Below, piece by piece: positions 62,837 through 62,873 of a stretch of DNA of 64,000 bases. The stretch's first letter is position 1. Each line of letters opens with the position of its first letter. Both the position numbers and the translations under genes were made by a program. The notes under the pieces were generated by a model, which made no database searches, was not told the DNA's origin, and saw only the letters and a program-made list of their open reading frames with translations. The stretch spans positions 1,157-65,156 of the forward strand of contig CANAUI010000001.1 in NCBI GenBank assembly GCA_947364715.1, written 5' to 3'. The DNA is from an uncultured Clostridium sp. Lineage in GTDB: Bacteria > Bacillota > Clostridia > TANB77 > CAG-508.

Positions 62837-62873
62837 ATGAGCCCAACGAGCTGCCAACTGCTCCACTCCGCGA
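62837..62873 (-). pseudogene. inverted partial copy of the tRNA-fMet 5' exon (positions 1-37)
   Basis: Minus-strand cgcggagtggagcagttggcagctcgttgggctcat-a has 34/36 identity to 19891..19926. It ends exactly at the intron insertion site and then diverges. Confidence 0.65.

Follow-up and report, generated by a model that had tools for sequence, protein, structure and literature searches.

The closest described counterparts of the locus reported here are actinobacteriophages with tRNA-dependent lysogeny (Fionnbharth, Cluster L and Gaia; Guerrero-Bustamante and Hatfull, 2024, PMC10865867, in which the Lj965 prophage is also cited), whose tRNAs make up for a lost host copy. From a different angle, Randau and Söll hypothesized, according to the summary in PMC4390854, that disrupted tRNA genes resist the integration of mobile elements. 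Here, we analyzed 64,000 nucleotides of contig CANAUI010000001.1 from an uncultured Clostridium sp. (this whole stretch is called the window), which hold a putative integrative conjugative element (ICE), an intact initiator tRNA gene (tRNA-fMet) with a group I intron and the 5' half of another tRNA-fMet gene. The half gene, together with its promoter, very probably represents the remains of a host tRNA-fMet gene downstream of sufB that was split when the ICE inserted into its anticodon loop by means of a tyrosine integrase. The intact gene (19891..20218) is, as judged from its sequence context, part of a cargo cassette of roughly 500 bp inside the ICE.

A truncated tRNA-fMet gene at the element boundary

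An earlier note on this DNA had reported a near-identical inverted copy of the tRNA-fMet 5' exon near the right end of the window. When the 37-nt 5' exon of the intact gene (CGCGGGGTGGAGCAGTTGGCAGCTCGTCGGGCTCATA) was searched against the window with up to three mismatches allowed, only two sites were found: the gene itself (19891..19927, plus strand) and 62836..62872 on the minus strand, where 35 of 37 positions match (mismatches G6>A and C30>T). The 100 dinucleotide-preserving shuffles used as control give an expectation of 0. Thus, the copy is real, but the coordinates 62837..62873 and the match of 34/36 given for it were off by one base; the distance of 42.6 kb between the half tRNA and the intact gene, their opposite orientation and the SufB-like gene to the right were all as noted.

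An extra base, A at 62835, fits the mature tRNA (CTCATAA) and not the intron-containing gene (CTCATAG). After CTCATAA the similarity to the tRNA stops and ICE DNA (ATACCGACAT...) starts, and the single 3' half of tRNA-fMet in the window (20180..20218) lies inside the cargo gene. Alignment of the two upstream regions revealed that ~90 nt before the half tRNA and before the intact gene are also homologous (roughly 70%), covering a consensus promoter and a AAATTTTCAAAA...TATTGACAAA leader. On sequence grounds, the right-hand copy is a promoter plus half gene that has diverged from the intact gene like a paralogue; the half had been regarded as a copy of the intact gene's exon, and is instead a separate host paralogue with its own promoter.

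The host 5' half, nucleotides 1-38 through the loop CTCATAA, occupies 62835..62872 (minus strand, as are all features of this junction) and forms the host side of the attachment junction attL; the same layout is found in the contigs L089-L095 described below. It contains a 17-bp core, GCTCGTTGGGCTCATAA (62835..62851), which junction comparison showed to be common to the integrase-proximal end, and an inferred 7-bp overlap, CTCATAA (62835..62841), deduced from junction polymorphisms. The orphaned host promoter (62890..62919; TTGACA, 18-nt spacer, TATAAT) matches the consensus at 12/12 positions, reads into the ICE and shares homology with its counterparts in the cargo gene and in the tRNA-fMet genes of relatives. 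This promoter aims at the first ICE genes, and no intrinsic terminator was detected before them; RNA folding of the stump and the downstream region gave no notable structure (z = -0.3) and no clear terminator. On the element side, the integrase-distal arm (P'; 62356..62834) starts with ATACCGACATATAAAAATGCC, is identical in L089-L095 and contains TTTAACAGAATT twice (62726..62747) and a cluster of TTAGGGAT repeats (62540..62680). Four of the seven TTAGGGAW sites of the window lie within 140 bp on this arm. The chromosomal flank is a sufB/sufD-like gene (63265..64000), identified by gene scan and by comparison with 80 related loci, which runs off the right edge. ARAGORN at default settings called no tRNA in the whole window, missing both the split gene and the intron-bearing cargo gene.

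Element ends in other genomes

Further contigs with the ICE ends were collected through two of its proteins, the 277-aa product of 61522..62355 for attL and a 303-aa protein next to xis for the opposite junction, attR. Assemblies with the ICE include GCA_949458495.1, GCA_948706375.1 and GCA_948701455.1. The attL junction was found in seven contigs (L089-L095) representing six distinct host contexts. In each of them a host-specific promoter is followed by a 5' half ending in CTCATAA, and in 7/7 this half is joined to the same sequence (ATACCGACATATAAAAATGCC...) as in the window. The attR junction was found in eight contigs (L081-L088) with ~7 host contexts, in the order xis, 505-aa integrase (PF00589) and host-specific 3' half. 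Here ~150 bp of conserved DNA after the integrase gene end in ...AAAAATAT-GCTCGTTGGGCTCATAA and are fused to a tRNA-fMet 3' half; the half and everything beyond it differ from contig to contig. From the complete identity (100%) of window positions 1..1100 to L082, attR can be located 975-991 bp to the left of position 1. ARAGORN found no tRNA at any of these 15 junctions or at attL of the window, and called the controls L123, L055 and L025.

The stem variants at attL are host-specific (GTCGGG, GTTGGG or GCAGGG), and at attR the GTTGGG of the element is always followed by a host-specific CCCGA, CCCAA or CCCTG. Therefore, GGG-CTCATAA-CCC encloses the site of strand exchange, which falls in the 7-nt anticodon loop. 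The common core is 17 bp long, and 10 bp in hosts with other stem variants. The motif TTAGGGA is repeated twice at the integrase end (-71 and -60 from the core) and clustered on the other arm, a placement such as arm-type sites would be expected to have. Overlapping parts of the ICE are 99.5-100% identical in L090-L093, L095 and L097-L099, L089 and L094 carry a diverged variant (88-99% identical), and the accessory block is 99.8-100% identical to that of L081-L088 outside a variable cassette.

Neither junction is a tRNA gene, and thus the target has been split and not regenerated. The element and the host gene have only GCTCGTTGGGCTCATAA in common, and exchange occurs in or next to the loop CTCATAA. 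The attL junction therefore consists of host promoter, 5' half and ICE arm, and attR of ICE arm, 17-bp core and host 3' half; left of the window, GCTCGTTGGGCTCATAA followed by CCCAAAGGTCGGTAGTTCGAGTCTACCCTCCGCAACCA is predicted after the integrase gene. The recurrent junctions bear out the suggestion of the earlier note that a second tRNA-fMet gene had been destroyed at its anticodon loop by insertion. The split gene is not restored, as attL continues with ATACCGACAT..., not with a 3' half. The int/xis genes at 1..1009, which it had tentatively assigned to the same element carrying the intron-containing copy, do belong there, given the context in L081-L088 and the complete match to L082. On the other hand, the intact tRNA and the half do not bracket an element at 20271..62600, since the element runs through the intact tRNA to the integrase off the left edge, with the 3' half ~1 kb beyond position 1 as indicated by L081-L088. 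The position where the half ends does agree with the intron site, but this does not indicate that either was derived from the other: the two coincide because both events use the 7-nt anticodon loop (overlap CTCATAA; intron after CTCAT or CTCATA).

In several contigs (L082, L086 and L088 at ~13.2-14.4 kb; L131, L133 and L137 at ~4.3-5.6 kb), a second integrase family of 391-400 aa lies on the opposite strand directly after the displaced 3' half, which indicates that different elements stack in tandem at the same tRNA-fMet gene. In L085, the genes after attR at 13.1-20.9 kb (SLBB/ComEA-like, PBP5, LytR and CvpA-like) correspond, in inverted form, to the genes that precede attL in L089/L090 (4.5-9.4 kb); this gene order suggests rearrangement around the insertion in some hosts. 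BLAST searches of phages and plasmids with the tRNA/intron and the ICE returned tRNA-exon matches, crAss-like intron-core matches and scattered genes, and no related element.

The empty site and related integrases

We retrieved 80 related sufB loci (80-94% amino-acid identity) from genomes of uncultured gut Clostridia. Many of them contain an uninterrupted, intronless tRNA-fMet gene downstream of sufB on the same strand, so that the comparison with relatives lacking the element, as proposed in the earlier note, yielded the expected empty site. The acceptor strand of the window stump, CGCGGAG, is unusual; its complement (…CTCCGCA) is found in the attR 3' half of L087, and L055 carries intact the exact gene with this acceptor strand. 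L055 also has, downstream of sufB (10974..11276), a host promoter with a 5' half that stops at CTCATAA; this is followed by 190 bp containing AAAGGGAC and GATTAAAA repeats and then by a complete tRNA-fMet gene. The arrangement could be what is left of a related element, or a miniature version of one. In another relative (L025), a full tRNA is followed 7.3 kb further by CTCATAA and a 3' half, which represents classical anticodon-loop integration.

A 456-aa homologue of the integrase (P0168), 57% identical to that of the ICE, is listed in 1,806 assembly blocks. In the contigs examined for it (L131-L140, 3871..4110), the element end ...TCGCAGGGCTCATAA is fused to host-specific tRNA-fMet 3' halves; the gene is unreconstructed in 10/10 contexts and no tRNA was called. 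The commonness of this integrase, together with the 10/10 unreconstructed genes, implies that splitting of tRNA-fMet is common and presumably tolerated. Splitting of initiator tRNA genes appears to be widespread in gut Clostridia.

The cargo tRNA-fMet cassette and its group I intron

The cargo cassette (19844..20258, plus strand) consists of a near-consensus promoter (19844..19872), exon 1 (19891..19926), an intron of 252 nt (19927..20178), exon 2 (20179..20218) and a terminator recognized in the sequence (20226..20258). It is present in five ICE copies, the window and four identical ones (L096-L099), where it lies between the convergent ORFs of the 114-aa Zn_ribbon_recom protein and a 78-aa protein, in opposite orientation to the split gene. 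The tRNA shows initiator features (C1xA72, A11:U24 and three G-C pairs in the anticodon stem) and is called as tRNA-Met(CAT) once the 252-nt insert is removed. In Rfam, the intron (19914..20171) matches the group I model RF00028 from end to end (model positions 1-253) and scores 84.7 bits, the gathering score being 50. It begins after CTCAT or CTCATA, that is, inside the 7-bp overlap, and a U19926.G wobble is possible in P1.

The 3' splice site is less regular. The omega G of the Rfam model is G20171 and the 3' exon must begin at 20179, with 7 nt (AUAACUA) between them, the base before the exon being A20178. A tRNA-Met(CAT) results only if the intron ends in A, and registers using G20171 give broken anticodon arms; the intron mode of ARAGORN picks a register with the amber-reading anticodon CTA. 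If spliced, the cargo tRNA would read GGGCUCAU|AACCCGAAGG at the junction or, alternatively, GGGCUCAU|AUAACUAAACCC. When viral contigs were searched for a group I P7 strand with a tRNA-fMet 3' half after it, all 18 matches were due to chance and no intron-bearing homologue was found. Several crAss-like phage genomes (cr4_1, cr6_1, cr128_1, cr55_1 and cr1_1) contain stretches, unannotated or associated with an HNH endonuclease, that share 73-86% identity with the intron core (19949..20092) over 80-150 nt. In L096, identity extends as far as the CCA of the cargo tRNA, and from 8450 onward unrelated DNA (DUF5906 primase-like genes) follows; this looks like another element inserted at the 3' end of the ICE-borne tRNA.

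Sister elements were found through homologues of the 114-aa Zn_ribbon_recom protein, which are stand-alone proteins of 100-125 aa without a catalytic domain among the 120 listed of 143 found. Sisters whose protein is 71-75% identical have a tRNA-fMet gene with a homologous leader at the same spot; it is intronless in L123-L125 and L141/L143 and cut by the contig end in L129. From this distribution, a cargo initiator tRNA is recurrent in this element group and the intron is specific to the lineage of the window. In L123 (3600..3760) and L141 (10590..10700), the direct repeats downstream of the intronless cargo genes have the same sequence as the arm-type repeats at attR of the matching integrase type (TTAGGGA; CAAGGGTA), which hints that the cargo cassette was derived from an old attachment junction.

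Gene content of the ICE

The ICE is, by our estimate from its two ends, about 63.8 kb long, extending from 62834 leftwards beyond position 1 of the window, with the order attL, transfer module, cargo tRNA cassette, accessory genes, regulators, xis, int and attR. In Pfam and PHROG scans, the transfer module (20271..62355, the whole 20.3-62.4 kb block lying on the minus strand) was found to encode a MobA/VirD2 relaxase (PF03432; 22118..23788), a NikA-like protein (23763..24194), an NlpC/P60 hydrolase (39058..40914), a split VirB4/TraC-like protein (41185..43354, with weak TraC and P-loop_TraG matches), a VirB2-like pilin (45072..45401), a split coupling protein (T4SS-DNA_transf/TraG-D_C; 45497..46930), a primase (49151..51496) and, adjoining the P' arm, the 277-aa protein used above to find attL contigs (61522..62355). 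Several DNA methyltransferases, an LPD1 protein, SpaA adhesins, a sortase and a PAPS-reductase-like gene are also present. The VirB4/TraC-like ATPase and the coupling protein are each in two ORFs, for which assembly frameshifts would be an alternative cause; in the coupling protein, profile positions 91-257 of T4SS-DNA_transf fall in one ORF, and 366-438 together with TraG-D_C in the next.

The accessory block (4183..19711, plus strand), whose genes also adjoin int in L081-L088, contains a metallo-beta-lactamase-fold protein, an ABC-F ATPase, two ABC/FtsX transporters and a MazE-like gene. Domain scans placed an HU-like gene on the opposite strand within it (18695..18988, minus strand) and the 114-aa Zn_ribbon_recom ORF (PF13408; 19367..19711, plus strand) just upstream of the cargo tRNA. 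Directly 3' of this ORF lies a non-coding motif, GGGGTACAACA..TTTT..ATCGGTAGGGAAG (19715..19753), conserved in relatives and kept where the ORF product is only 64-82% identical (L118, L121, L123, L126, L127, L129 and L141). A cassette at ~4153..5886 is the only variable one among the otherwise 99.8-100% identical ICE copies: the version of the window encodes a 286-aa protein and a Lactamase_B-fold protein, L083/L085 (3698..7806) an EF-G/Tet(M)-like GTPase, PadR, a glyoxalase and an RrnaAD (Erm-like) methyltransferase, and L081 and L087 other small genes.

The regulation and recombination end (1..3670, minus strand) contains small regulators found by domain scans, including a sigma-70 region-4 protein (1983..2480), the 303-aa protein adjoining xis (1062..1973), whose identical sequence is listed in hundreds of assemblies, an excisionase-like HTH_17 protein (Xis; 818..1009) and the N-terminal 232 aa of the tyrosine integrase (1..696), which runs off the left edge and lies within the region of 100% identity to L082 (1..1100). 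Taken together, the gene set (relaxase, coupling protein, VirB4-type protein, pilin, NlpC/P60 hydrolase, Xis and integrase) is consistent with an integrative conjugative element, as judged from these domain matches.

Role of the cargo tRNA and alternative explanations

What the cargo tRNA does is less certain than the split of the host gene. It might compensate for the loss of the host copy in the way that phage tRNAs do in tRNA-dependent lysogeny, and we give this proposal not quite an even chance; precise excision would then restore the host gene and leave a circle with the predicted attP AAAAATATGCTCGTTGGGCTCATAAATACCGACAT. A more tentative proposal, which we regard as unlikely on present evidence, is that the intron, by making the overlap CTCATAG and removing the right half-site, shields the cargo copy from the ICE's own integrase. 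Recombination by tyrosine integrases suffers strongly when the overlap contains mismatches, as discussed in PMC10865867. In an excised circle, recombination between attP and an intronless cargo gene, which is inverted with respect to the core, would invert the segment between them and destroy both sites, and the intron could thus act as self-immunity. The most far-reaching version combines the two: an element family that cuts initiator tRNA genes, and is very common in gut Clostridia, would include a lineage that survives its own integrase and binds its host through an intron-broken replacement tRNA, that is, intron protection together with tRNA-based addiction of a conjugative element. We consider this rather improbable.

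The strongest competing explanation accepts the junction as described and differs only in the cargo, which would be a passenger or dead; hosts would have several initiator tRNA genes and could do without one of them, and the intron would play no part in integration. This is a real possibility, although we would not call it probable. In its favor, the omega G is absent at the required position, sister ICEs occur without any cargo tRNA and others with an intronless one, and the presence of the P0168 integrase in 1806 assembly blocks suggests that splitting is well tolerated. However, the promoter of the cargo gene is close to consensus, its initiator identity elements are intact, a terminator follows it and its ribozyme core scores highly. 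In addition, at least four diverged lineages carry a cargo tRNA of the very isotype that is destroyed, and the arrangement agrees with the phage case, which has been proven experimentally (PMC10865867).

Several observations weigh against the scheme of a split host gene with a compensating and shielded cargo copy. The two junctions were read on separate contigs, and no fetched contig spans both. Neither an attP circle nor a restored attB was seen. The attP and attL patterns gave 0 matches in JGI metagenome and IMG/VR contigs; the absence of attL indicates that these collections lack the ICE, so the scans are uninformative. This copy of the ICE may be transfer-defective, given its split coupling-protein and VirB4-like genes. 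As for compensation, a splice-register search found no U(-1)/omega-G pair that yields a 7-nt anticodon loop, and such a U(-1)/G(omega) pair is present in 98.5% of 5,292 bacterial tRNA group I introns (Williams, 2020). In L118-L120 and L126-L128, where the Zn_ribbon_recom protein is 80-82% identical, the same neighbours flank ~90 bp at the cassette spot and no tRNA. As for shielding, the intronless cargo tRNA-fMet genes of L123-L125 and L141/L143 are each a perfect attB. Sister ICEs without a cargo tRNA or with an intronless one mean that neither compensation nor shielding is obligatory. Given the missing guanosine at the needed splice position and the relatives with an intronless copy or none, both functions are putative.

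Other explanations concern the junction itself. It seems very improbable that only 20271..62834 was inserted, by a serine recombinase represented by the Zn_ribbon_recom ORF at 19367..19711, with the intact tRNA as the other boundary. In its favor, the 114-aa ORF, with its match to PF13408, closely precedes the intact tRNA, the coding strand changes at that tRNA, and L096 diverges immediately after the cargo tRNA; however, the ORF encodes a conserved small protein without a catalytic domain, in related ICEs it abuts a 75-aa ORF, a methylase and the relaxase block with no tRNA between, and the junction that pairs with attL, sharing its core and arm repeats, adjoins the tyrosine integrase. A large serine recombinase (about 450-700 aa, with an N-terminal resolvase catalytic domain, by an att site) was considered as well and rejected, only the 114-aa Zn_ribbon_recom ORF being present.

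An inversion between two inverted tRNA-fMet loci, the other origin offered in the earlier note for the inverted arrangement and the truncated copy, is hardly credible. The two promoter-plus-5'-half units do form inverted repeats 42.6 kb apart, and in L039 sufB is followed by an ABC-transporter pair 66-68% identical to 10215..14867 of the window in the opposite relative orientation. Nevertheless, homologous inversion would leave two chimeric full genes and not a half, and the same half-tRNA/ICE junction recurs in six further host contexts, whose flanks are unrelated, its complement being found at the integrase end. The ABC genes of L039 are only distant homologues at that level of identity, and the idea based on them was dropped, as the junction data account for the half-copy. 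Equally remote is a classical regenerating integration that later decayed through deletion of the 3' half at attL: classical anticodon-loop integration does exist in the relative L025, but CTCATAA|ATACCGACAT is base-for-base identical in 7/7 other contigs (six host contexts), as expected of the element's normal end, and the homologue with a 57% identical integrase also leaves the gene unregenerated in 10/10 contexts.

Comparison with known systems

The split of a host tRNA-fMet gene by tyrosine integrase-mediated insertion of the ICE resembles tRNA-dependent lysogeny most closely. Three sequence-level features of the phage system are found in the ICE, including a cognate element-borne tRNA, for which the function is inferred from the phage case. 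In both, the attB used by the tyrosine integrase (505 aa and next to attR here) lies within a host tRNA gene, and the common core is so short (10 bp in phages, 10-17 bp in the ICE) that neither junction rebuilds a tRNA. They differ in that the ICE belongs to low-GC gut Clostridia, is not a phage and targets an initiator tRNA, in that its core is the 5' strand of the anticodon stem plus the loop whereas the phage core lies in the 3' half, and in that its cargo tRNA has a group I intron within the overlap. In the searchable literature we found no description of a conjugative element with non-regenerating integration into an initiator tRNA and a cognate cargo tRNA, such an arrangement being found only for some phages, nor of a group I intron in such a cargo tRNA. 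If true, tRNA-dependent integration would extend from actinobacteriophages, for which it was proven in 2024, to conjugative elements of the gut and to initiator tRNA, and the integrase family concerned is listed in hundreds to thousands of assemblies. Some ICE copies hold Tet(M)-like and Erm-like genes in their variable cassette, so the insertion biology of these elements bears on the spread of resistance genes.

Classical islands and ICEs in tRNA/tmRNA genes (Islander-type; PMC4383910) share with this ICE a site-specific tyrosine integrase, a tRNA target and crossover in the anticodon loop. However, those elements regenerate the target and leave a displaced 3' fragment as a direct repeat, whereas here two non-functional pieces result and only 17 bp are duplicated. 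Island finders keyed to a regenerated tRNA and a displaced fragment would presumably, by design, not delimit such elements. In addition, ARAGORN in its default mode misses split and intron-containing genes, and thus genomes carrying these elements may appear to lack an initiator tRNA.

The cargo intron is similar to other group I introns of bacterial tRNAs in its strong RF00028 match, its anticodon-loop site and the possible U.G wobble in P1 at CAU|, and its site is equivalent to class 5U, as in the tRNA-Ile2 of Azoarcus with the same loop CUCAUAA. In contrast, the classical fMet intron lies after loop nucleotide 2, the registers giving CUCAUAA here end the intron in A and not in G, and the interrupted gene is the cargo of a mobile element in Clostridia.

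Tn916-type ICEs carry a sigma-like regulator, Xis and Int at one extremity and use AT-rich, semi-random targets. The ICE described here resembles them in its regulators, HTH_17 excisionase and tyrosine integrase at the extreme end with outward transcription, and in its Gram-positive-type transfer module with NlpC/P60, coupling protein, VirB4, sortase and adhesins. Compared by layout only, it is unlike them in being strictly site-specific for one tRNA gene, with an integrase of 505 aa.

Finally, the locus bears on the hypothesis of Randau and Söll, as far as the summary of it in PMC4390854 goes. The intron lies exactly where an abundant integrase family of the same community cuts the intronless gene, and one integrase, many intronless targets, an intron-bearing copy and sisters with intronless cargo together offer a natural test of intron shielding. 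If true, this would be a bacterial, element-encoded case of introns protecting tRNA genes from integration. It would differ from the cases in that summary, which are protein-spliced introns and split genes of archaea, in that the intron is bacterial and self-splicing and the gene it putatively protects is the element's own.

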